This document shows positions 1,852 through 31,948 of a stretch of DNA of 64,000 bases, piece after piece. The notes below the pieces were generated by a model, which was not told the DNA's origin, did not search any database, and saw only the letters and a program-made list of their open reading frames with translations. The DNA comes from a virus. Taxonomy: Duplodnaviria > Caudoviricetes. The stretch lies in IMG/VR virus record IMGVR_UViG_3300015608_004971; one strand, given 5' to 3'. The translations under genes were made by a program, and so were the position numbers. Position 1 is the first letter of the stretch; each line of letters opens with the position of its first letter.

Positions 1852-2703
1852 ATGAATGAAAAACAAGATAAAATAGATTTTATCGTTCCATCAACTATAG
1901 AGAATATAGATGAGGCAATTTTTAATTGGCTTGATCGAGAAATTAATTTATTTACTGATACAAATGATGGGTGGAAGAAAGTGCCTGTTTTATGGGGAAA
2001 TGCCGAACGTTCATTTATGGTGAAAAATAACCCAGATAAATCAGATCTTGAGGGCGCAATTATTTTACCAATAATTACAATTCAAAGAACATCTATGCAA
2101 AAGAATTTAGCCAATAGAAGCGTTTTTGGTGCCCATGTTTTTCCACCAAAAATTGATGTAAAAGGTGGTGTAATTCAAATAGCAAAAAGAATCCAGCCTG
2201 ATAAAACAAAAGAATTTATGAATGCTGATTCAAAATATGAAACAGGTCAAACAAATTTTCCTGGTGTCGGTAAATATGATATTCAAGGAAAACCTGCTGT
2301 TTGGGAAATATTATATTCTGCTTATCCATCCTATATTGATATTACATATACAATAAAGTTAAGAAGTGAATATTTACTTCAAATGAATGATATGGTTGCG
2401 CCTTTTATTGGAAGAACGGGCGGAATAAATTCTGTCTTATTGAAAAATAATGGCCATCAATATGAAGCTTTTTTACAAGAAGGGTTCGATCCGAAAACTA
2501 ACGCAGAAGATATGACAAACTCTGAAAGAAAATTTGAAACAGATGTTGTTATAAAAGTTCTTGGCTATATTAATGGTTCTGGAAAAAACGACGTTCAGCC
2601 AAAGATTGTTACAAGAGAGACAGCAGTAAAATTTAGATTTCAACGAGAAAGAACAATTATGGGCGATTCACCAGAAATTAAAAAAGCTTTTTATCGAAAT
2701 TAA
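1852..2703 (+). CDS. Tail terminator / sheath stabiliser (T4 gp15-like)
   Basis: 'KVPVLWG', 'LPIITIQRT', 'P.YIDITY', 'QMNDMV' motifs; lies directly before sheath gene. Confidence 0.65.
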   Translation: MNEKQDKIDFIVPSTIENIDEAIFNWLDREINLFTDTNDGWKKVPVLWGNAERSFMVKNNPDKSDLEGAIILPIITIQRTSMQKNLANRSVFGAHVFPPKIDVKGGVIQIAKRIQPDKTKEFMNADSKYETGQTNFPGVGKYDIQGKPAVWEILYSAYPSYIDITYTIKLRSEYLLQMNDMVAPFIGRTGGINSVLLKNNGHQYEAFLQEGFDPKTNAEDMTNSERKFETDVVIKVLGYINGSGKNDVQPKIVTRETAVKFRFQRERTIMGDSPEIKKAFYRN

Positions 2704-2722
2704 ATTTACAAAAATAATAGAA

Positions 2723-2730
2723 CTATTTAT
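2723..2730 (+). promoter_or_regulatory. Putative late promoter motif CTATTTAT
   Basis: Intergenic, upstream of the tail sheath RBS (AGGAG). Confidence 0.55.
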
Positions 2731-2763
2731 ATGTGAACTTTTATTAGGAGCTTGTTTAGATAA

Positions 2764-5595
2764 ATGGCTATAACAAACAAAAAATTTAAATTTGTGTCAC
2801 CAGGCGTTATCGTAAGTGAAATAGATAATTCACAATTGCCTGCCGTATCACAACCAGATGGACCAGTTATTATTGGTAGAACAGAGCGCGGCCCAGGCAT
2901 GGTTCCTGTTGAAGTAACATCTTTTTCTGATTTTATTGAGGTCTTTGGAAAACCAGTAGCAGGTAATGCTTCTGGCGATATTTGGCGTGATGGAAATTTA
3001 ACAGCACCAACTTATGCATCATATGCTGCAGAAGCGTGGCTTAAAAATAGTAATAAAGTTACTGTAATTCGTCTTCTTGGTGATCAACATGAAGAGACAA
3101 CAGAAGGTGGAAAAGCCGGATGGACAATGCCATTTGCATCATCAGGTGGCGGCGCATATGGACTGTTTCTCTTTCAATCAGGAACAGCAGCATCAAATGT
3201 AACTGGTACGCTTGCTGCTGTATTTTATTGCGGCTCAACAACAGCATTTGAATTATCTGGCGCTCTACGTCATGCTGGTACAGCTATAACCGGCACTTGT
3301 GCTCTTATAGGAAATACAAGCGGATATAGTGGCTATGAATTTACCGGTCAAATTGTTAATGGTACAACAGTATCAGATAAAACAAGCTTTAATTTTGATA
3401 GAACATCAGACAGATTTATTAGAAAAGTTTTCAATACAAATCCAATTATGACTAATGGCGATGTAATGACAACAACAAAAAATTATTGGCTTGGCGAGAC
3501 TTATGAGGAGAATCTTGCATCATTATTTGGAGCAAATCCAAATACACCATTCTTTGCGACAGTTATGGCTTTATCAAGTGGTGGTGTTGATGGTGGCGAT
3601 TTCAGAATGGGTAGCCAAAAAGCAAGCACTGGTTGGATCTTTTCTCAAGATTTAACTTCAAATACAGCAAGCTATGATCCAGATAATATGCAAAAACTAT
3701 TTCGCTTTGAGGATCTAGACTCTGGTGAATCAAATCAAAAGAAATTTAAAGTTTCGCTACAAGATATTAAACCATCACAAAATCCAACTGTTCAACCTTT
3801 TGGCACATTTACTGTCGTTATTCGGGATATTGGCGATACAGATTCTGCACCAAGAATTCTTGAAAGCTTTGTTAATTGTGATTTAAATCCAAGCTCACCA
3901 AATTATGTTGCTTTAAAAATTGGTGATAAATATAGAGAATGGAGCGATGGCGAGGCAAGATATATCGAGAAAGGCTCATATGACAATAATTCAAAATTTA
4001 TTAGAGTCGTAATGAATTCTGATGTTGATACAGGAGTTGCGGATCCAGCATGTTTACCTTTTGGTTATTATGGCCCAAAAAGATATAAGAGCTTTACAAC
4101 AATTTCAGGTTCAACCAATTTTTATCAACTTGGAAGCACAACAGTATCACAATCATCAGCTATTGTTAGAACTGTTGATGTAAAAGATACTAGAGCGAGT
4201 GGAGTATTACTAAACGTAGGAACAACTGCATTTACTGGTTCAGTTGTATTTCCAAAATTTGTATTAAGAGATTCATCGACATCAGGCTCTCTTTCAACAG
4301 GAAAAAATGCATATTTCGGTACTGTTTTTAATAAACAAACTGATTATGTTACTGTTGATAAAGGACATGTTGACTTAACAAGATGTTTGCCAACTGGTCT
4401 ATCTCATCTTTCTGATAACCCACTTCTTGAGAATAGCTTTGTATTTTCGTTAGATGATTTGGCTGGTTCAACAGGAAATCCATCAACATCTACTTCAACA
4501 ACATGGACTCAAGGCAATCGTGTTGCTGGGACATCTTTGACTGCTCAATCTGGTGCATCCGCACTGCTAAATGCAGGCTGGAATAGATTTACATTGCCTT
4601 TATTTGGCGGTTTTGATGGCTTTGATGTAACTGAAAGCGAGCCATTTAGAAATAGTGGTTTATCTGGCGGTACAGATACAACAAATTATGCATATTATTC
4701 ATTAGGAAAGGCAATTTCAATTGCATCAGATCCAATGATTAATATGAATGTTGCTGTAGTTCCAGGCATTACTGATGCCGGAATTAAAAATAGATTAATT
4801 CAACTGTGCGAAGAGAGAGGTGACGCAATCGCAATTCTTGATCCAGTTGGTGGTTTTTCACCAAGAGCGGAATCAACAGCACCAGATTTTGGCTCTATAA
4901 CAAATGTAGATACTGTTGTAAATAACACAAAGACACAAGCATATAATACATCTTATGCTGCAATGTATTATCCTTGGGTTAAATCTGTTGATTCAAGAAC
5001 TGGACAACAAGTGTGGCTCCCACCATCAATTCCAGCCTTAGGCGTTCTATCTAGCACAGATAGAAAAGCAGATCCTTGGTTTGCGCCAGCAGGATTTACT
5101 AGAGGTGGTTTATCGGCAGGCGCAGGCGGCGTTTCGGTTGTAGGTGTTGCACAACAACTTACAGCAAAAGAAAGAGATAAGCTTTATGAAATAAACATTA
5201 ATCCAATTGCACAATTTCCAGCAGAAGGAATTGTTGTGTATGGTCAAAAAACCTTGCAATTTACAAAGAGTGCTCTTGATAGAATTAATGTAAGAAGATT
5301 GCTACTGTATGCAAAGAAAGAAATTTCAAGAATTGCTGCAACCACTCTATTTAATCCAAATACTCTTGTTACTTGGAATGATTTTAAGAGTAGAGCAACA
5401 CTTGTTCTAGATAGCATCAAATCAAGATATGGACTTGAGGAGTTTTTGGTCGTTCTCGACGAATCAACAACAACACCAGATCTTGTTGATCAAAATATTA
5501 TGTATGCAAAGATCTTAATGAAACCAACAAAAGCAGCTGAATTTATTGCTGTTGACTTTGTATTAACAAACTCAGGTGCCTCATTTGAGGACTAA
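2764..5595 (+). CDS. Contractile tail sheath protein (gp18-like)
   Basis: 'SPGVIVSEID' N-terminus, 'PWFAPAGFTRG', 'RDKLYEININPI', 'GQKTLQ..SALDRINVRRLL', 'KPTKAAEFIAVDF'. Confidence 0.95.
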   Translation: MAITNKKFKFVSPGVIVSEIDNSQLPAVSQPDGPVIIGRTERGPGMVPVEVTSFSDFIEVFGKPVAGNASGDIWRDGNLTAPTYASYAAEAWLKNSNKVTVIRLLGDQHEETTEGGKAGWTMPFASSGGGAYGLFLFQSGTAASNVTGTLAAVFYCGSTTAFELSGALRHAGTAITGTCALIGNTSGYSGYEFTGQIVNGTTVSDKTSFNFDRTSDRFIRKVFNTNPIMTNGDVMTTTKNYWLGETYEENLASLFGANPNTPFFATVMALSSGGVDGGDFRMGSQKASTGWIFSQDLTSNTASYDPDNMQKLFRFEDLDSGESNQKKFKVSLQDIKPSQNPTVQPFGTFTVVIRDIGDTDSAPRILESFVNCDLNPSSPNYVALKIGDKYREWSDGEARYIEKGSYDNNSKFIRVVMNSDVDTGVADPACLPFGYYGPKRYKSFTTISGSTNFYQLGSTTVSQSSAIVRTVDVKDTRASGVLLNVGTTAFTGSVVFPKFVLRDSSTSGSLSTGKNAYFGTVFNKQTDYVTVDKGHVDLTRCLPTGLSHLSDNPLLENSFVFSLDDLAGSTGNPSTSTSTTWTQGNRVAGTSLTAQSGASALLNAGWNRFTLPLFGGFDGFDVTESEPFRNSGLSGGTDTTNYAYYSLGKAISIASDPMINMNVAVVPGITDAGIKNRLIQLCEERGDAIAILDPVGGFSPRAESTAPDFGSITNVDTVVNNTKTQAYNTSYAAMYYPWVKSVDSRTGQQVWLPPSIPALGVLSSTDRKADPWFAPAGFTRGGLSAGAGGVSVVGVAQQLTAKERDKLYEININPIAQFPAEGIVVYGQKTLQFTKSALDRINVRRLLLYAKKEISRIAATTLFNPNTLVTWNDFKSRATLVLDSIKSRYGLEEFLVVLDESTTTPDLVDQNIMYAKILMKPTKAAEFIAVDFVLTNSGASFED

Positions 5596-17952: not shown

Positions 17953-18930
17953 ATGATTTTAATAATTGATAGTCATAATCAATTTATTAGATCCGCTGTT
18001 GTGAATCCTACACTATCACCTTCTGGCCAACCAATTGGTGGTATTGTAGGATTTTTAAAATCACTTCAAAAACAAATTAGATTATTTGAGCCCGACAGAG
18101 TTATTCTTTGTTGGGATGGCTTTGGCGGCTCTACTAAGCGAAAAATTATAAATAAAAACTATAAAGAAGGTCGAGCGCCAATAAAAATAAATTGGCACAC
18201 AACATTATCGGAAGATCAAATTTATGCCAATAGAGCTTGGCAAATGGGCAAGCTAATGGAAATTTTAAATGAACTTCCATTTGTACAATTAATGCTCGAT
18301 GGAACAGAAGCAGACGATTTAATATCTTATATAAAAATAACATATTGGAACGAGGACAAGATAATAGTGTCATCAGACAAAGATTTCTATCAGATTGTTG
18401 ATGAAAAAACAAAAGTCTATCGCCCTATTACAGAGGAAATAGTAGATGTTCAATTTGTTCTTGACAAACATTTTATTCATCCTAATAATTTTGTAATAGC
18501 AAGATCTATTGCTGGTGATGATTCTGATAATCTTGATGGTGTTCGTGGCGCTGGCCTAAAAACGTTGTCAAAACGATTTCCAATTTTAAAAGAAGAAAAG
18601 ATTTTATTTTTGACAGATATTTTTGATGAATGCAAGAACAATAAAGATAAAAATAAAATAAAAATATTTAATGAAATTTTGTCATCAAAAGATACAATCG
18701 AACAAAACTATAAATTGATGCAATTATCAATTCCAAATATTTCTTATTCTGATAAAAGAACTGTAACAGAATCATTGATCGAGGAATCGTCATATGATTT
18801 TCTTGCATTTCAAAAGAAATTATTTGCACTTGGAATCGCAGAATTATCTTGGACAGATTTAAAGCAAGGAATGAAAAAAATATTATTGACCAATGAGTTA
18901 ATTGGCAAGGAAAATAAAAAGGAAGTATAA
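17953..18930 (+). CDS. 5'-3' exonuclease / RNase H (Pol I N-terminal-like)
   Basis: 'LIIDSHN', 'YKEGR', 'EADDLI', 'SSDKDFYQ', 'GDDSDNLDGVRGAG.KT'. Confidence 0.92.
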   Translation: MILIIDSHNQFIRSAVVNPTLSPSGQPIGGIVGFLKSLQKQIRLFEPDRVILCWDGFGGSTKRKIINKNYKEGRAPIKINWHTTLSEDQIYANRAWQMGKLMEILNELPFVQLMLDGTEADDLISYIKITYWNEDKIIVSSDKDFYQIVDEKTKVYRPITEEIVDVQFVLDKHFIHPNNFVIARSIAGDDSDNLDGVRGAGLKTLSKRFPILKEEKILFLTDIFDECKNNKDKNKIKIFNEILSSKDTIEQNYKLMQLSIPNISYSDKRTVTESLIEESSYDFLAFQKKLFALGIAELSWTDLKQGMKKILLTNELIGKENKKEV

Positions 18931-20756
18931 TGGAAAAAACATTTCAAAAATATGGAAACAGTTTTCAAGACAAACTTGTTACATTAATGCTTCGAGAGGC
19001 AGCATTTTGTGATCAAATGAGAGAAGTATTAGACTTAAGTCTCTTAACAAAAGTATCACATAAATTATTATTACAATTAATGTATGAATATAAGGATGTA
19101 TATAGAATCTATCCTGCATATGATACAATGGTAACATTAATTTCAACACAACTTGATACACAAGATGATAACATCAAAAGAGAGGTTGCAACCTTTTATT
19201 CAAAAGTAATAAAGCATGAAACTATTCATGACGAAGAATACGTAAAATCAGAATCTTTACAATTTTGCAAAACTTTAAAACTTGAAGAAGCAATTATTGA
19301 AGCAGCAAAGATGGTAAAATCTGGCTCAAGATTTGAGGATCTGATAAAAGTATTGTCAGAAGCCGGAAGACTTGGTTCTGACAATAATTACGGCTATAAC
19401 TATAAAGATGATTTTGAAGATCGATTTAAATATATTCAAAGAAACTATATTTCAACTGGATGGTCAAGACTTGATAATATCACAAGAGGTGGACTCGGAA
19501 AGAAAGAGCTATCTGTTATTGTAGCAAGTTCAGGATGTCATGCAAAAGATACAGACATTTTAATGTTTGATGGTACATGGAAAAAAGTCCAAGATGTCGT
19601 TATTGGTGACAAATTAATGGGCCCTAATTCAAAGGAGAGAAATGTTTTGTGCCTTCATAGAGGCAGAGAACAAATGGCAAAAATTATTCCGAATAGCAAT
19701 AATGATAAGCCATTTATTGTTAATATGAGTCATATTTTGTCTGTCTTAGACTATAAAACACTTAAAAAAGAAAATATCTCTGTGAGAGATTATCTATCTC
19801 AAGAAGAAAAAAAGTTATTATATAAATTTATCAATAAAAAAGATTACGGAAACCTTCCTTTTAAGCAATATTTTTATGATTTCGCTGTTAAGCTCTTAGA
19901 TGAGGATGATTATTTTGGCTTTGAAGTTGATGGTGACAATCTTTATGTAATGGAAGACTATTGGGTTACACATAATAGTGGCAAATCAATGGTTCTTGTT
20001 CATTTAGGTGCAGCAGCCCTTCGTGAGGGAAAAAATGTAGTCTATTATACATTAGAGCTCGCAGAAACAAGCATTGCGAGTCGTTTCGATGCCTGCTTGA
20101 CAGGAATTAAAATGGATGATATGCTAGAAAACAAGGACAAGATCTATGACAATATTAAAAATGTCAAAGGATCTTTAATTATTAAAGAATATCCAACAAA
20201 AACTGCCTCAATTATGACACTGAGAAATCATCTAGAAAGATTAAAAGCATCAGGCTTTAAAACAGATTTAGTTCTCGTCGACTATGCCGATCTTCTTTCA
20301 ACAAAATCATCAACAGGACAAAAATGGAGCGATCTTGAAGGTCTTTATGAAGATTTGAGAGCAACAGCACAACTTTTTGATGTGTCAATTGTAACAGCAT
20401 CACAAACAAATAGATCTGCCTTGAATCAAGAAGTAGTAACACTTGAATCAATTTCAGATGCATTTAGTAAATGCTTTGTTGCGGATCTAATTATTACACT
20501 TTCAAGAACACCAGATGATAAGATGAAAAATTCAGGACGATTTTTTATAGCAAAGAATAGAAATGGAACAGATGGTGTTGTATTTCCAATCGAAATGGAT
20601 ACTTCTAATGTTCAAATAGAAATCTTAGAAAGTGAGCTTGAATCGGTTGAAGATATAAGAAAGGCATCCGAAAAGAAAGCAGTTGTATCATTGAAGCAAA
20701 AATATAATCAAGTTAAAAATGATCTTGCAAAAGATGATTCAAACCAATCAGAATAA
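18930..20756 (+). CDS. dnaB: Replicative DnaB/gp41-like helicase with intein
   Basis: 'STGWSRLD', Walker A 'ASSG|SGKS' split by intein, 'YYTLEL', 'VDYADL', 'TASQTNR', 'AKNRNG'. Confidence 0.92.
   Translation: MEKTFQKYGNSFQDKLVTLMLREAAFCDQMREVLDLSLLTKVSHKLLLQLMYEYKDVYRIYPAYDTMVTLISTQLDTQDDNIKREVATFYSKVIKHETIHDEEYVKSESLQFCKTLKLEEAIIEAAKMVKSGSRFEDLIKVLSEAGRLGSDNNYGYNYKDDFEDRFKYIQRNYISTGWSRLDNITRGGLGKKELSVIVASSGCHAKDTDILMFDGTWKKVQDVVIGDKLMGPNSKERNVLCLHRGREQMAKIIPNSNNDKPFIVNMSHILSVLDYKTLKKENISVRDYLSQEEKKLLYKFINKKDYGNLPFKQYFYDFAVKLLDEDDYFGFEVDGDNLYVMEDYWVTHNSGKSMVLVHLGAAALREGKNVVYYTLELAETSIASRFDACLTGIKMDDMLENKDKIYDNIKNVKGSLIIKEYPTKTASIMTLRNHLERLKASGFKTDLVLVDYADLLSTKSSTGQKWSDLEGLYEDLRATAQLFDVSIVTASQTNRSALNQEVVTLESISDAFSKCFVADLIITLSRTPDDKMKNSGRFFIAKNRNGTDGVVFPIEMDTSNVQIEILESELESVEDIRKASEKKAVVSLKQKYNQVKNDLAKDDSNQSE
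19536..19976 (+). mobile_element. Mini-intein (147 aa) in the DnaB P-loop
   Basis: Starts 'CHAKDTDILMFDG', ends 'YWVTHN' followed by Ser; too short for a homing endonuclease. Confidence 0.92.
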
Positions 20757-20779: not shown

Positions 20780-23032
20780 ATGGATATTTCAAGAAAAATT
20801 TTATCTGATATTACACATCATATGAAGTATGCAAAATTTAGACCGAGCGACTTCAGGAGAGAAACATTTGAGGAAACTGTTGATCGAAATGTGGCGATGC
20901 ATTTGAAGAAATATCCTCATCTTGAGCAAGAGATTAGAGACGCATATAAATTTGTTTATGAAAGAAAAGTTCTTCCCTCTATGAGATCAATGCAATTTGC
21001 AGGAAAAGCAATAGAAGTGTGTCCATCAAGACAGTACAATTGTAGTTATCTTGCTGTAGATAATGTTCATTCATTTAGTGAAATTATGTTCCTATTATTG
21101 GGAGGAACAGGTGTGGGTTTCTCAGTACAAAGTCATCATATTGAAAATTTACCAGAAATCCGCAAACCAAATACAAAAAGAACAAGAAGATATCTAATTG
21201 GTGATTCAATTGAGGGATGGGCAGATTCTATCAAAGCTTTAATGAAAAGTTATTTTGACGGAAGTTCAAAGATAATTTTTGATTTTACTGATATTAGACC
21301 AAAGGGGGCACTTCTTATAACTGCTGGCGGTAAAGCGCCTGGTCCGCAACCACTTAAAGAATGTTTAATGAAAATTGAGGGACTTCTTGATACAAAAGAA
21401 AATGGAGATAAACTAACTTCAATCGAAGTTCATGATATAGTTTGCTATATAGCCGATGCTGTACTGGCAGGTGGAATTAGAAGAAGTGCGTTGATTTCTT
21501 TGTTCGATGCAGACGATCAAGAAATGATTTCTGCAAAAACAGGAAATTGGTGGGAAACGAATCCGCAAAGAGGCAGAGCAAATAACTCTGCTGTCGTTTT
21601 AAGACACAAAGTTACAAAAGATTTTTTTATGCAACTTTGGGAAAGAGTAAAGCAGTCTGGTTCTGGTGAGCCTGGTATTTTTTTGACAAACGATAGAGAC
21701 GTTGGAACTAACCCTTGTAAGCCGCTAAGATCAACAATCTTAACAAAAGAAGGTTATATCACTTTTGCTCAAGCACTAGAAAAAGATCATCTTGAGGTTA
21801 TGGGAATTGATGGCAAATGGAAAAAAGCCTCAAAACCATTCAAAACAGGAACTGACAGGACAATAACACGCTTTACTCTTTCAAATGGTCATTTTCTCTA
21901 TGGAACACCAAATCATAGACATTTAGACAATAATGGAATATGGCGAGAAATGAAAGATATGAATGTTTATGATCTTTTAAGATCACAGGATAGAAAAAAT
22001 CCATTAGAAATTGTAGAAATAGTTGAAGATTTTTCAATAGAAGATGTTTATGATATTACTGTTTATGATGAAAGTCACGCATTTTATGATACTGGCGTTG
22101 TAACACATAACTGTGCTGAAATTTCTTTAAAAAATTGTGGTTTTTGTAATTTAACTGAAGTTAATGTAAGCGATCTTGAATCCCAAGAAGATTACGAGAA
22201 TAGAGTTCGTTCTGCCGCATTCATAGGAACACTTCAGGCGTCTTATACAGATTTTCATTATCTTCGTGATATTTGGAAAAGAAATGCAGAAAAGGAAGCA
22301 CTTCTTGGCGTATCTATGACTGGAATTGCATCAAACTTGATCTTCAATATGGATATCGAAAAAGCAGCAAAAGTAGCAGTACAAGAGAATAAAAGAGTAG
22401 CAAAACTGCTAGGAATAAACCCAGCAAGAAGAGTTACCACAACAAAGCCATCAGGTACATCATCATTAATATTGGGAACATCAAGCGGAATTCATGCATG
22501 GCATAGTGAATATTATATTAGACGTATTCGTGTTGGAAAAAATGAGGCAATATATCCATATCTCAAAACAAATCACCCAGAATTAGTTGAAGATGAATAT
22601 TTTAGACCACATGATACAGCAGTAATTTCTGTACCACAAAAAGCGCCAGATGGATCACTATTGCGTTCTGAATCACCAATTAATTTTCTTGAGAGAGTTA
22701 AAGCTGTCCATGATAAATGGATTAAACCAGGTCACATTAAAGGTGAAAATACACACAATGTTTCTGCAACAATTTCAATAAAAGATAATGAATGGGATGA
22801 TGTTGGCGAATGGATGTGGCAAAATAGAGATAGCTATACAGGATTGAGCGTGCTTCCTTTTTCAGAGCATTCATATGTGCAAGCGCCTTTTGAAGAGTGC
22901 TCAAAAGAGGAATATGAACGACTGTTAAGCTCACTACAAAATGTAGATTTATCTCAAATTTTTGAGACAGAAGATGACACAGATTTACAAGGCGAACTAG
23001 CATGTGTTTCTGGCAATTGTGAAATTAAATAA
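20780..23032 (+). CDS. nrdJ: Class II (B12-dependent) ribonucleotide reductase with intein
   Basis: 'YNCS', 'GTGVGFSV', 'GGIRRSA', 'TNP|CAEI', 'FCNLTE', 'KPSGTSS', C-terminal 'ACVSGNC'; no small subunit nearby. Confidence 0.88.
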   Translation: MDISRKILSDITHHMKYAKFRPSDFRRETFEETVDRNVAMHLKKYPHLEQEIRDAYKFVYERKVLPSMRSMQFAGKAIEVCPSRQYNCSYLAVDNVHSFSEIMFLLLGGTGVGFSVQSHHIENLPEIRKPNTKRTRRYLIGDSIEGWADSIKALMKSYFDGSSKIIFDFTDIRPKGALLITAGGKAPGPQPLKECLMKIEGLLDTKENGDKLTSIEVHDIVCYIADAVLAGGIRRSALISLFDADDQEMISAKTGNWWETNPQRGRANNSAVVLRHKVTKDFFMQLWERVKQSGSGEPGIFLTNDRDVGTNPCKPLRSTILTKEGYITFAQALEKDHLEVMGIDGKWKKASKPFKTGTDRTITRFTLSNGHFLYGTPNHRHLDNNGIWREMKDMNVYDLLRSQDRKNPLEIVEIVEDFSIEDVYDITVYDESHAFYDTGVVTHNCAEISLKNCGFCNLTEVNVSDLESQEDYENRVRSAAFIGTLQASYTDFHYLRDIWKRNAEKEALLGVSMTGIASNLIFNMDIEKAAKVAVQENKRVAKLLGINPARRVTTTKPSGTSSLILGTSSGIHAWHSEYYIRRIRVGKNEAIYPYLKTNHPELVEDEYFRPHDTAVISVPQKAPDGSLLRSESPINFLERVKAVHDKWIKPGHIKGENTHNVSATISIKDNEWDDVGEWMWQNRDSYTGLSVLPFSEHSYVQAPFEECSKEEYERLLSSLQNVDLSQIFETEDDTDLQGELACVSGNCEIK
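21716..22111 (+). mobile_element. Mini-intein (132 aa) at the RNR catalytic NPC.E motif
   Basis: Starts 'CKPLRSTILT', block B-like 'GTPNHRHL', ends 'VVTHN' followed by Cys. Confidence 0.92.
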
Positions 23033-27403: not shown

Positions 27404-27875
27404 AAATAAAATTCTAAATCTAGATGATTATAAAAAAGAATTTCCAAAAATAATATTTTTAAGATATCAAGATACAATATATTTTGATGAACTTCTAAAA
27501 AGTAGCTATTCTTTTGCCGATTTATTAGAAAAATCAAATAAAATTTTAAATGAAATAAATATAAAATTTCCAAATATAAAAAATGAAGATATTATTTTTA
27601 ATTTTGTTCAATGTTATGATCATAATGATGATATATCTGGTGTAAAAAGCCTAAATATCTCAGTCAAAGATGAAGAGACTGATGAAGAATACGAAGAGAG
27701 GGTAAAAACACAGTTTAAATATTATTTAAAAGATAAAGAAAGAGAACAAAAAGAAAAAGAACGTAAAAAGCAAGATAAAATAAAAATTGAAGAGCTAGAG
27801 TGGGAAACTTATTTAAAACTTAAAAGTAAATTCTCTAATAAAGAAAAAAAGGATATAGATGATGTTTCAAAATAA
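27393..27875 (+). CDS. Hypothetical protein, charged C-terminal helix
   Basis: AAGGA RBS before ATG 27393; 'ETDEEYEER'. Confidence 0.5.
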   Translation: MKNKNKILNLDDYKKEFPKIIFLRYQDTIYFDELLKSSYSFADLLEKSNKILNEINIKFPNIKNEDIIFNFVQCYDHNDDISGVKSLNISVKDEETDEEYEERVKTQFKYYLKDKEREQKEKERKKQDKIKIEELEWETYLKLKSKFSNKEKKDIDDVSK

Positions 27876-30669
27876 AAAATTTGTTGGTCTTCATGCTCAC
27901 GATTGTTTTTCAATTTTTGATGGGTTTGGATATCCAAGCGAGCATATTGATTATGCTGTATCTAATGGTATGGATGCTCTTGCTGTAACAAATCACGGCA
28001 ATATGGATTCTCTTTCTTATCAAGTTTTACATGCAAAGAAAATTAATTCTGAGGGTATTAATTTTAAGCCAATTTATGGTGTTGAAGCGTATTTTGTTCC
28101 TTCTCTATTGGATTGGAGAGAAGCTTATGAAAAAGCAAAAGAAGAAAAGAAAGTAAAAGACAGTGCAGATGATGAAAAAATGTCTGTTGAAGATGAGGAA
28201 CAAACAAAATCTGCTGAAAAATCGTTTTTAAAGAAACGTCACCATCTTGTCTTACTTGCTATGAATGAAACTGGATTGAAAAATATTTTTAAACTCGTTT
28301 CCATGTCACATCAGGCAGAAAATTTCTATTCATATCCAAGAATTGACTTTGAAATGTTAAAAAAATATAACGACGGCGTAATATGTCTTCAAGCTTGTCT
28401 TGGCGGCTATCTTGCAAAAGCTATCTGGGAGAATAAAGATAAAGATAGAGAAACCATCAAAAATGAAATGACAAAAAGAGCTAAACAGTTTGTTGATATT
28501 TTTGGTGATAGATATTATCTAGAATTACAATGGAATGCAATCCCCGAACAACATCTTTTAAATAAAATATCTCTTGAAATTGCAAAAGAAAATGGAATAA
28601 AATTTGTTTCGACAGCAGATTCACATTACCCAACGCCAGATTCTTGGAAGCAACGGGAAATATATAAAAGACTTGGATGGCTTGGAAATAAACCAGATTA
28701 TTCTATAGATGATCTTCCAAAAACCAGAGAAGAGCTCAAATATGAAATTTATCCAAAAAATTATGAGCAAATGTTTGATGCTTATAAAAAATATTCTAAA
28801 ATATGCAACGAAGAATATAATGAGCAAGACGTCATTCAATCTTTAGATGAAACAGCAGATATTGCCTATAATAGAATAGAAACATTTTATCCCGATTCAA
28901 AGGTAAAACTTCCACAATTTCTCTTGGATAAAGATAAAAAGCCAATTCAACAATTGGCTGAAATCTGCATTCAAAAAATGAAAGAATTAAAATTAGATAA
29001 GAATAATGATTATATTGAAAGAATTCATAAAGAGCTTGATGTCATAAATAAAAGAAATTTTGCTGCTTATTTTATAACAATGAAAGCAATATCTGACGAA
29101 GCAAGACAAGTACAATTGTGTTCACCCGGAAGAGGTTCTGCCGCTGGTTCTCTTATAGCGTTTCTTTGTGGAATAACAACGATAGATCCAATACAATATA
29201 ATCTTCAATTTGAAAGGTTTCTATTAGAAGAAGGGACAGACTATCCAGACATAGACTTTGACTGTTCAGAACCAATGGAGTTAAAAGAAATTTTAACTGA
29301 AAAGTGGGGGAAAGAAAAAGTAATTCCAATTACAAATTTCAATAAACTTAAATATCGTTCTCTTATTAAAGATGCATCAAAGCTTCTTGGAATAGACTAT
29401 CAAGAGGTTAATGCTGTCACAAGCATTATGCTTGCAGAGGCGACACCTGCTGCAAAAAGAAAAAACGACATAAAAGCTGGTGCATATGAGCCAACATATG
29501 AAGAGGTTGTTGAATTTTCACCATCATTAAGAGAATATTATAAAAAATATCCTGATGTTGAGAAGACAATTAATGGTCTATTGGGACAAATTAAGTCTCG
29601 CTCTCGTCATGCTGGCGGAATTGTACTCGGTGACGATTTAACTACAGAAATGCCCTTAATATCGTCAAAAGGCGTAATGCAAACCCCTTGGTCAGAGGGT
29701 CAACACGTTAGACATTTAGAGCCACTTGGTTTTATTAAATTTGATATTCTCGGAATTGATACTCTAAATATGATTTCCGATTGTATTCGACGTATTATCC
29801 AAAAAGAAGATAAAAAAGAAGAAGTTTCTTTTCAAGAAATAAAAGATTGGTATATTAAGTATTTGGACCCATCAAATAATAATTTTGATGATAAAAAAGT
29901 ATATGAAAATGTTTTTCATAATGAAAAATGGCCAGGAATATTTCAATTTACAAAGCCAGATGCACAATCATTCTGTTCAAAAGCAAAACCATATTCAATT
30001 GCTGATTTATCTGCGATCACATCAATCTATAGGCCGGGACCAATTTCGGCTAATGTTCATAATGAATATGTACGCGTAAAATATGAAAAAGAAGAAAATA
30101 AGTTTATGAAAGATGATAGAATAAAAACAATCTTATCAGAAACAAGTGGCTTTCTTATCTATCAAGAACAAATTGCATCACTAACTGCACTCTTGGGAAA
30201 GAATATTTCTTTGAATGAAGGAAATTATTTAAGAAAACTTTTGACAAAGAAAGGCACAGGAAAAGGTCTGGATAAGATTGAGCTTATTAAAGAAAAATTT
30301 CTTGAAGGTGCGAAAGAAAAAGGCTTGACCAATTCTATAGCTAATGAGCTTTGGGAAAATATGGAAAATTTTGCGACGTATGGCTTCAATAAATGTCTTG
30401 ACGGGGAAACAACTTTTGTAATGACAAAAGAATCTGGCAAGAAAAAAATAAAAGATGTTCAAGCAGGCGAACATGTTCTTTCAAAAAATGGCTTTGTTAA
30501 AGTTCTTGATATTATGAATCAAGGAAAGAAAAAATTAGTAAAATTAACGACAGCATCAGGCAAAGTTCTCTGTCTAACAAAAGATCACAAGGTTGATACG
30601 GAAAAAGGAATGATGAGACTGGAAGATGCTTTAAAAAATAAATTAAAAATAAGAATTTTAGAAGAATAA
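27859..30669 (+). CDS. dnaE: DNA polymerase III alpha N-terminal part fused to split-intein N half
   Basis: PHP 'LHAHDCFSIFDG', 'GRGSAAGS', 'PDIDFD', 'HAGG', 'KFDILG', 'IYQEQ', then 'YGFNK|CLDGET...RILEE*'. Confidence 0.95.
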   Translation: MMFQNKKFVGLHAHDCFSIFDGFGYPSEHIDYAVSNGMDALAVTNHGNMDSLSYQVLHAKKINSEGINFKPIYGVEAYFVPSLLDWREAYEKAKEEKKVKDSADDEKMSVEDEEQTKSAEKSFLKKRHHLVLLAMNETGLKNIFKLVSMSHQAENFYSYPRIDFEMLKKYNDGVICLQACLGGYLAKAIWENKDKDRETIKNEMTKRAKQFVDIFGDRYYLELQWNAIPEQHLLNKISLEIAKENGIKFVSTADSHYPTPDSWKQREIYKRLGWLGNKPDYSIDDLPKTREELKYEIYPKNYEQMFDAYKKYSKICNEEYNEQDVIQSLDETADIAYNRIETFYPDSKVKLPQFLLDKDKKPIQQLAEICIQKMKELKLDKNNDYIERIHKELDVINKRNFAAYFITMKAISDEARQVQLCSPGRGSAAGSLIAFLCGITTIDPIQYNLQFERFLLEEGTDYPDIDFDCSEPMELKEILTEKWGKEKVIPITNFNKLKYRSLIKDASKLLGIDYQEVNAVTSIMLAEATPAAKRKNDIKAGAYEPTYEEVVEFSPSLREYYKKYPDVEKTINGLLGQIKSRSRHAGGIVLGDDLTTEMPLISSKGVMQTPWSEGQHVRHLEPLGFIKFDILGIDTLNMISDCIRRIIQKEDKKEEVSFQEIKDWYIKYLDPSNNNFDDKKVYENVFHNEKWPGIFQFTKPDAQSFCSKAKPYSIADLSAITSIYRPGPISANVHNEYVRVKYEKEENKFMKDDRIKTILSETSGFLIYQEQIASLTALLGKNISLNEGNYLRKLLTKKGTGKGLDKIELIKEKFLEGAKEKGLTNSIANELWENMENFATYGFNKCLDGETTFVMTKESGKKKIKDVQAGEHVLSKNGFVKVLDIMNQGKKKLVKLTTASGKVLCLTKDHKVDTEKGMMRLEDALKNKLKIRILEE
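30394..30666 (+). mobile_element. Split intein N-fragment (91 aa)
   Basis: Block A 'CLDGETTFV', block B 'LTKDHKV'; ends at a stop codon. Confidence 0.92.
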
Positions 30670-30671
30670 AA

Positions 30672-30972
30672 ATGAAAAAAATCAAACTAGAATGCTTAGA
30701 GTGCAAGCAAGAAGTTACATCTAATACGATAAAAATGCATACCAAAAATAAAATTAGCAATAGAAATAGATGGTGATTTTTGGCATGTTAATGAGCATGC
30801 AGGCTATTCTTTAAAATATGCAAGCCAAAAGAAGAACTTAATTAATGATAAATTAAAAAATGATTTTCTTATAAAAAATTACTGGACAATTATACGTTTA
30901 TGGGAAGCTGATATAAAAGCTGATAATAAATTATGTGTAGAACAAATAAAGGAAAAAATAAATGAATTATAA
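30672..30972 (+). pseudogene. Decayed Vsr/DUF559-type endonuclease between the two dnaE halves
   Basis: ATG 30672 'MKKIKLECLECKQ..' stops at 30776; another frame (30733-30972) reads 'IPKIKLAIEIDGDFWH...NDKLKN...WTIIRLWE.DI'. Confidence 0.8.
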
Positions 30973-31087
30973 TTCAAAATTTGATGAGATTCTTTTTGTT
31001 GAAGAAATTGATGAAAATGAAACATATGATCTTGAGGTTGATAGCGAAGATCATACATTTTTTGCAAATGGCATTTCTGTTTCAAAT
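30962..31087 (+). mobile_element. Split intein C-fragment (42 aa)
   Basis: Blocks F/G ending Ser-Asn, +1 residue Ser. Confidence 0.92.
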
Positions 31088-31948
31088 TCTCATGCGGTCT
31101 CATATAGTATTGTTTCCTATCACTGCGCATATCTATTTACACACCACCCCGACGAATGGATTATGGCTTTTTTAGATAAAACAGTAGAAAATGAAAAAGA
31201 AGAAGCAATCAATATTGTTAAAAGTTTAGGCTACGAGATTAGACCTGTCTCAATTATTAATTCAAAAAATGAATGGACAATGGATGAAGATAAAAAATTA
31301 ATTCAACCATTTACCTTCATTAAAGGTCTTGGTGAAAAAGCCATTGAGCAAATTTATATTGGACGTCCTTTTTCTAAAATAGAAGATTTTATTTTTAATG
31401 ATAAAATCACTTATTCTAAATTAAATAAAAAATCATTAGACGTCTTAATTAGATCTGGTGCTCTTTCTGAATTGATGGATGAACGTTTTACTGGCCAAAA
31501 ACATTTTTGGAAATCAGTAGCAGAAGACCGTCCAAAAACTATAAAAGCTTTTAATGAAAATATTGAAAAATATAAAGATGAAGGTGATTTTAGTTTAGAA
31601 GAAAAAATTGATTTTAAAATATCTTTAACAGGAACATATCCTTTTGATCTTGTTGTAGATTATAAATCATTAAATATTTTAAAGAAAAACGAAATTAATT
31701 CTATTTCTGAGTTTGATTATGAAAATCCATTTGTGTGGTTTTTGGTAACAGACAAAGTAGAAAAAACCACACGAAATGGTAAAAAGTACACCATACTAAC
31801 AGTGACAGACTTGACAAATAAGATGGTTGAGGTAAAATGTTGGCATGAAACTGGTTCGATTCAAAAACATGCAATTTATCTATCGAAGTTAACTCATGAT
31901 GAGTGGGGCTTCTCATCAAGAAGTGAGAAAAATTTTAAGAAAATTTAA
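30962..31948 (+). CDS. dnaE: Split-intein C half fused to DNA polymerase III alpha C-terminal part
   Basis: 'TYDLEV....TFFANGISVSN|SHAVSYS', 'IKGLGEKA', 'LIRSGAL', OB-fold 'TRNGKKY...D'. Confidence 0.95.
   Translation: MNYNSKFDEILFVEEIDENETYDLEVDSEDHTFFANGISVSNSHAVSYSIVSYHCAYLFTHHPDEWIMAFLDKTVENEKEEAINIVKSLGYEIRPVSIINSKNEWTMDEDKKLIQPFTFIKGLGEKAIEQIYIGRPFSKIEDFIFNDKITYSKLNKKSLDVLIRSGALSELMDERFTGQKHFWKSVAEDRPKTIKAFNENIEKYKDEGDFSLEEKIDFKISLTGTYPFDLVVDYKSLNILKKNEINSISEFDYENPFVWFLVTDKVEKTTRNGKKYTILTVTDLTNKMVEVKCWHETGSIQKHAIYLSKLTHDEWGFSSRSEKNFKKI

Follow-up and report, generated by a model that had tools for sequence, protein, structure and literature searches.

A two-gene phage dnaE locus with the anatomy of a gp41-1-like split intein and the remnant of a homing-endonuclease gene

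Described split inteins and the two-gene dnaE locus

Genes fractured by split inteins are known from both phages and cyanobacteria. Dassa et al. (2009) reported 26 fractured-gene loci, mainly of phages, in the GOS metagenomes, including DnaE-1, -2 and -3, gp41-1 to gp41-8, NrdJ-1 and IMPDH-1; in three of them a split intein interrupts DnaE, at integration points unlike the cyanobacterial one. Vsr-like endonuclease genes stand in half of these loci, the 3' end of the endonuclease gene overlapping the start of the C-terminal intein half (IntC) by 6-69 base pairs (bp), and most of the loci, though not every one, have a hairpin and/or a late-promoter TATAAATA ahead of the endonuclease start. According to the model proposed there, a contiguous intein is invaded by an endonuclease gene, which is later lost. 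The present study concerns a locus of this type in a large phage, namely the gene of the replicative polymerase DnaE (Pol III alpha) in IMG/VR virus record IMGVR_UViG_3300015608_004971, of which a stretch of 64,000 nucleotides (nt), here called the window, was analysed.

The window encodes DnaE in two open reading frames (ORFs), both on the + strand. Gene 1 (27859-30669, 936 amino acids, aa) begins with an N-extein of 845 aa (27859..30393), which ends in NFATYGFNK and matches the PHP (2.8e-33), DNA_pol3_alpha (2.1e-52) and finger (4.4e-29) domains of Pfam, and it continues into an N-terminal intein half (IntN) of 91 aa (30394..30669, with Cys1 at nt 30394 and including the TAA stop at 30667-30669). 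After a spacer of 292 nt (30670-30961), gene 2 (30962-31948, 328 aa) lies in a different frame and opens with an IntC of 42 aa (30962..31087), reading ANGISVSN at its end. The C-extein which follows (31088..31948 with its stop, 286 aa) starts with Ser+1 as SHAVSYS and carries HhH and OB domains (HHH_6 at 5.9e-13; the OB match is weak). This anatomy agrees with a preliminary description made from the letters of the window, which had read gene 1 as ending in YGFNK followed by a 91-aa IntN and a stop, gene 2 as lying about 290 nt further in another frame, and IntC as 42 aa ending in Ser-Asn before SHAVSY.

The insertion point is defined by relatives in which the site is empty. Twelve IMG/VR relatives share 45-57% identity with the DnaE of the window, and the site region could be read in nine of them; in all nine, N-extein residue 845 directly abuts C-extein residue 1, and the sequence is (S)GYGFNK/SHA(V/I)(S/C)YS (slashes outside brackets mark junctions). 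A strictly conserved motif of the polymerase is therefore regained once IntN, spacer and IntC are taken out, which corroborates the earlier proposal that joining the halves would yield YGFNKSHA. Taken with the Pfam domains and the gp41-1 matches described below, these data support the proposal of the preliminary description, in which a naturally split intein has fractured the dnaE gene of the phage. The DnaE proteins of cultured phages are at most 31% identical to that of the window, a blastn search with the complete locus found nothing among cultured phages, and no paper turned up in a literature search that combined the junction motif with the word "intein". An apparent match to the IntC junction in Escherichia phage Cyrano was rejected, as no intein is present at that site.

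The cyanobacterial split DnaE inteins (Ssp, Npu; PolIII-alpha site a) interrupt the same host enzyme in the same motif region (Y-G/C-F-N-K-S-H) and are likewise naturally split, trans-splicing restoring the polymerase. However, their junction, AEY/CFN, lies four residues upstream of the K/S of the window in a motif alignment on Y-(G/C)-F-N; they have Cys+1, an acidic IntN and a basic IntC, whereas the window has Ser+1 and a basic IntN, and their halves are encoded at unlinked loci. The site four residues earlier, the Cys+1 and the opposite polarity had all been stated correctly beforehand, as the published junction and charges confirm.

The resemblance to the loci of Dassa et al. (2009) is closer. 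In both cases, a replication gene is broken by a split intein whose halves are carried on separate ORFs and meet at the endonuclease-insertion loop, and the integration point of the window is also unlike the cyanobacterial DnaE site, DnaE-1, -2 and -3 having been compared by description. The three published DnaE loci also bear out the statement that phage fractured genes with an intervening endonuclease were already described. The window differs from them in that its endonuclease gene is an internally deleted, frame-broken remnant instead of an intact ORF, and the locus fits the published description near the late end of the model.

The intein halves

The two halves carry the motifs of a splicing intein. 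IntN (CLDGETTFVM...LTKDHKVDT...KIRILEE) has the block A nucleophile, a Cys at intein position 1 (CLDGET..., residue 846 of gene 1), and the T-x-x-H of block B in LTKDH, which aligns to SEEH of gp41-1 and is kept in relatives. IntC, MNYNSKFDEILFVEEIDENETYDLEVDSEDHTFFANGISVSN, has a penultimate Ser and contains blocks F and G as ETYDLEVD..DHTFFANGISVSN, with the terminal Asn followed by Ser+1; N42, S43 and H44 are without variation in alignment A1. Moreover, the halves are strongly and oppositely charged, in accordance with what had been noticed at first: IntN has an isoelectric point (pI) of 9.5 and a net charge of +7, IntC a pI of 4.05 and a net charge of -11.

Among structures in the PDB, the gp41-1 intein 6QAZ is the top match of both IntN (E 6.7e-10) and IntC (E 1.6e-3). 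IntN aligns with gp41-1 residues 11-87 and IntC with residues 95-126, so that the break falls at the same place as in gp41-1, and in a profile built from contiguous mini-inteins the halves cover positions 1-84 and 95-133. The fold was approached through L016, a contiguous IMG/VR allele about 50% identical to the halves of the window (alignment A2), which was modelled with AlphaFold (pLDDT 96.9). The top structural match of this model in Foldseek is gp41-1 (TM 0.91, root-mean-square deviation 1.6 A, 34% identity), and Npu DnaE stands at rank 24 with 24% identity. The support for a HINT fold thus comes from the contiguous allele. The break maps to residues ~85-88 of the model, in a turn ahead of the long hairpin 90-110; the paper on the gp41-1 structure places the natural split site of gp41-1 at the front of the equivalent strand. 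By sequence and by model, the intein is classified as gp41-1-like, the cyanobacterial DnaE intein being more distant. In searches of IntN against phage genomes only weak matches were returned, all to inteins in other genes.

The gp41-1 intein shares with the window the split position ahead of the long hairpin, a basic IntN with an acidic IntC, Ser+1, and ~33% identity in IntN (hand count from the alignment). Its halves are of similar size, 88 aa for IntN and 37 aa for IntC, compared with 91 and 42 in the window. The differences concern the host protein (gp41 helicase, against DnaE here), the penultimate residue (His there, Ser here) and the junction, which is K(-1)/SHA in the window, while gp41-1 has Y-1 and a Ser at +2/+3. 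An N-positive, C-negative polarity has been published for gp41-1 and gp41-8 (Dassa et al. 2009), and according to the structure paper negative charge prevails in the IntC of gp41-1, the reverse of the situation in Npu DnaE. Neither the reversed polarity nor Ser+1 is therefore new, both being features of gp41-1. Of the earlier suggestion of an independent split-intein pair with Ser+1, the independence from the cyanobacterial intein stands; the pair is not a new kind, being gp41-1-like, in an arrangement published in 2009 and at a site occupied in at least 37 loci. For protein engineering, it represents one more gp41-1-like candidate.

The endonuclease remnant, predicted splicing and rival explanations

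The spacer holds two pieces of a homing-endonuclease gene. The 5' stub (30672..30740, + strand) consists of an ATG and a zinc-finger start, CxxC-x11-H, which aligns to the N-terminal CxxC...H...H of the ~300-aa EDxHD endonucleases P0005-P0018; the frame from 30672 reads MKKIKLECLECKQEVTSNTIKMH... and, after 30740, continues with non-homologous codons up to the stop at 30774-30776. The 3' part (30739..30972, + strand) lies in the +1 frame and comprises the final ~75 codons of a Vsr-like/EDxHD nuclease domain, reading from IPKIKLAIEIDGDFWH through NDK to INEL and the stop; in full, the frame reads ...IPKIKLAIEIDGDFWHVNEHAGYS...NDK...IRLWEADI...INEL, ending at 30972. This part has no start codon and an in-frame stop just upstream. 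Its end overlaps the start of IntC by 11 nt (30962-30972), a value within the published range of 6-69 bp. Pfam matches are weak and under the curated cut-offs (MTES_1575 at 8.5e-6, DUF559, Vsr). An exhaustive search returned 545 matches, the best (E 3.8e-19, 58% identity) at residues 214-282 of a protein of 293, and most of the top-scoring ones fall in the last ~70 residues of proteins of ~280-350 aa. The full-length homologues carry NUMOD3 and DUF559/Vsr-type domains and belong to the EDxHD family, whose prototype is I-Bth0305I.

In comparison with I-Bth0305I and its family, the remnant keeps ...AIE-x-DGDFWH... and NDK of the C-terminal nuclease domain together with the N-terminal zinc-finger start, but it is without the NUMOD DNA-binding region and the preceding Asp-bearing motif, and its two pieces are out of frame. 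In the alignment, the 3' part starts right after the conserved Y-x-(I/L)-D-I-A segment, in whose place a stop stands, and both this segment and the NUMOD3 region are absent. The composite nuclease motif is incomplete, with E-x-D-G..W-H and N-D-K present and the upstream D-I-A segment missing. Relative to homologues of 280-390 aa, ~200 or more internal codons are gone, with the deletion junction near 30739. Given this internal loss and the out-of-frame pieces, the gene is dead and, judged by its sequence, cannot encode an active endonuclease; the split would therefore be fixed, no longer mobile by itself.

A Shine-Dalgarno-like AAGGA (30949..30953, + strand) was read 8 nt ahead of the IntC ATG, and an in-frame stop directly upstream of this codon makes the ATG at 30962 the only possible IntC start. 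Most simply, both halves are co-transcribed.

Trans-splicing is the best explanation of the split locus and is very probable. We infer the association of the halves, the splicing and the order of events as follows. The DnaE-type replicative polymerase of this myovirus-like phage is divided between two genes of the same orientation, of which gene 1 yields N-extein-IntN and gene 2 IntC-C-extein. The basic IntN and the acidic IntC would associate into a gp41-1-like HINT domain, and class-1 splicing would proceed from a thioester at Cys1 through transesterification to Ser+1 and cyclisation of the terminal Asn, joining ...YGFNK to SHAVSY... in a full-length polymerase of 1131 aa. As for its origin, a free-standing EDxHD (Vsr-like) endonuclease gene may have inserted into the loop of a contiguous mini-intein of ~130 aa, at the canonical endonuclease-insertion/split site, and so have split it; in the genome of the window, this gene would later have lost its ~200 or more internal codons.

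Several points weigh against this reading. The penultimate residue of the intein is Ser41, not the usual His, and it is invariant in the intein family. The spacer lacks a terminator and has no promoter above chance; it has no upstream hairpin, its RNA structure is not significant (z = -0.28), and the late-promoter TATAAATA was not found on reading the sequence of 30620-30680, so that in the hairpin and promoter signals, too, the window differs from the loci of Dassa et al. (2009). Furthermore, the insertion event is reconstructed from the protein sequences of the closest relatives (P0186, P0188). As to the first point, a penultimate His is common and not obligatory in class 1 inteins, and inteins without it are reportedly still able to splice.

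The missing His would also suit an explanation in which the DnaE halves work as a non-covalent complex and the intein halves serve as a dimerisation module which does not splice. A precedent is cited in the literature for Aeh1 NrdA, a phage enzyme fractured by an endonuclease gene without an intein, which reassembles non-covalently. However, a pure dimeriser would not need Cys1, T-x-x-H, the terminal Asn or Ser+1, and all splicing nucleophiles and block motifs are kept here; in a comparison of more than 30 loci, no other part of the intein is as well conserved. We consider this explanation very unlikely. Still less likely is that dnaE is a pseudogene broken by the endonuclease insertion, replication depending on another polymerase. 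The intervening endonuclease gene has itself decayed, but both dnaE halves are long, uninterrupted ORFs that match their domains over the full length, the exteins are 86-89% identical to those of an uninterrupted relative, IntC retains its start codon and ribosome-binding site, and the two-ORF layout recurs in many independent contigs.

The split could finally be an artefact, either of assembly or sequencing or because an intron is removed from the RNA and leaves a contiguous intein. The endonuclease remnant does shift frame beside an A-rich run, and Vsr-like endonucleases are published residents of group I introns as well. Against this, several stops are present in each of the three spacer reading frames, so a single sequencing frameshift cannot yield a contiguous intein; the 292-nt spacer is a recognisable endonuclease remnant absent from the contiguous allele, and in P0186, which derives from other assemblies, the same IntC opens a separate ORF. 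An artefact is thus highly improbable, in the same degree as a pseudogene. An intron in the spacer was itself considered and rejected, with no Rfam match and no significant RNA fold (z = -0.28).

With trans-splicing preferred over these alternatives, the locus represents a real trans-splicing-type gene arrangement, with predicted splicing, in the replicative polymerase of a large phage, and it leaves the knowledge of inteins unchanged. Its kind is already known; what is specific to it is the decayed endonuclease gene and the existence of close contiguous and mosaic relatives.

Alleles at the same DnaE site and other inteins

The closest relative, P0188 (1260 aa), shares 89% identity with the N-extein and 86% with the C-extein of the window and contains an unsplit intein of 132 aa which is colinear with IntN plus IntC; the intein of P0002 is one residue apart from it. 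The contiguous homologues whose search had been proposed at the outset are thus available at the same site. Between the window and P0002, IntN is 67% and IntC 60% identical, compared with 86-89% for the exteins (measured on P0188); blocks A, B, F and G have hardly changed, while the segments on either side of the break are strongly different. A metagenome scan with P0002 gave no match. Together with L014, L016, L017 and the intein of Rhodococcus phage NiceHouse, these contiguous mini-inteins have an insertion point identical to that of the window (FNK/...N/SHA), but each is part of one polypeptide, without stop, spacer or endonuclease gene, and the charge segregation of P0188 is weaker. Its two parts have net charges of +4 and -7, against +7 and -11 in the window, and the first 20 residues of IntC change from -2 to -6; the contiguous allele thus already has its charges segregated, and the split one more strongly so, a difference that is no more than suggestive.

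A second relative, P0186 (328 aa), combines an IntC identical to that of the window at 41 of 42 residues with a C-extein that is 94% identical to P0188 and 85% to the window. Of 41 informative sites in this protein, 32 agree with P0188, and the first one, beside the junction, is window-like. On sequence grounds, this mosaic indicates a lateral move of the split-intein cassette in which a short tract was co-converted.

Pairs of contiguous and split alleles from close relatives provide material for asking what changes after an intein has been split. A far-reaching proposal, which we regard as doubtful, is that the window, P0188 and P0186 form a natural before/after pair of intein splitting at ~88% extein identity, that IntC gained the additional acidic residues near its N-terminus, and IntN its basic residues, after the split as a gp41-1-style charge zipper, and that the pair, with Ser+1 and a penultimate Ser, would splice fast and would not cross-react with gp41-1 or Npu DnaE.

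On a broader scale, the site is an intein hot spot and is commonly occupied. A scan of IMG/VR with the junction pattern returned 62 loci, and both junctions could be placed in 37, so that an intein is present at this DnaE site in at least 37 phage loci. Contiguous mini-inteins of 126-147 aa occur in five of them (L014, L016, L017, L030, L042) and larger contiguous inserts in three. About 20 loci are split by a spacer of ~840-1170 nt with a long ORF, mostly matching EDxHD proteins, and in relatives including L013, L015 and L023 the two intein halves are separated by an intact endonuclease ORF of 280-390 aa. Eight further loci are split by a spacer of just 27-157 nt, which in L020 and L026 is a 29-aa tail remnant of the endonuclease. 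Moreover, 18 additional protein clusters (322-388 aa) open with an IntC of 33-42 aa, of the pattern ...ETYDLEVDHxDH(T/Q)F(F/Y)...SN/SHA, followed by the C-extein. Among cultured phages, NiceHouse carries its contiguous intein (FNK/CLAKDT...LTHN/SHA) in one annotated DnaE gene; Pol III alpha is among the intein hosts of actinobacteriophages named in a 2025 preprint.

At this site, the intein is absent in some genomes, a contiguous mini-intein in others and split in others again, where the endonuclease gene is live, decayed or missing; this allelic series illustrates the published model of split-intein origin, and the 292-nt remnant of the window is an intermediate stage of decay in it.

A second split-intein subfamily occupies the same DnaE site (L018:3720-5105, L021:3523-5093, L025:3771-5117, L028:3641-5105, L036:3681-5102, L038:3505-5093 and others). 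Position 1 of its inteins is Ser or Thr and the +1 residue is Ser, the IntC has the form ...DLEVDHPDHQ(F/Y)YL(A/S)NGxLTSN, and the subfamily is thus without a catalytic cysteine; natural split inteins of this sort are said in the literature to be rare. In most members an intact endonuclease gene stands between the halves.

DnaE is interrupted at other places too. In P0187/P0002, each recorded on a single 39,320-bp Logan contig, the protein seems to be fractured near residue ~580 (...SN/CGRHAGG) by another split intein, and this relative keeps the contiguous mini-intein at the site of the window; P0173 has the same IntC-like start as this second fracture. The IMG/VR dnaE loci L006 and L007 (about 2200-3540 and 4460-4870) have no intein at the site of the window; near residue 183, in the PHP domain, they contain ~1.3 kb of inserted sequence whose ends are intein-like, and near residue 460 an insertion of 414 nt that changes the frame. 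Rossellomorea phage phiT1 (L075, 2486-5768) encodes DnaE in two genes, gp20 (573 aa) and gp18 (469 aa), with a 49-aa ORF between them, the break being at a different place from that of the window.

Two more inteins are encoded upstream in the window, both contiguous. A DnaB/gp41-like helicase of 608 aa (18930-20756) holds a 147-aa mini-intein in its Walker A loop (...VIVASSG/CHAKDT...YWVTHN/SGKSMV; Pfam Hom_end_hint at 1.9e-14), and a class II-type ribonucleotide reductase of 750 aa (20780-23032) holds one of 132 aa (...DVGTNP/CKPLRS...GVVTHN/CAEISL). Three inteins, in helicase, ribonucleotide reductase and DnaE, hence lie within 12 kb of replication genes, and that of DnaE alone is split. Throughout the window (1-64000) every long ORF is on the + strand, the GC content is ~30% and the cumulative GC skew rises steadily; its genes include those for a tail sheath, a tape measure protein, a GroEL-like chaperonin, an RNA ligase, a dUTPase and an IMPDH/GMP-reductase-like dehydrogenase. 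The parent contig is listed at 198,888 bp.

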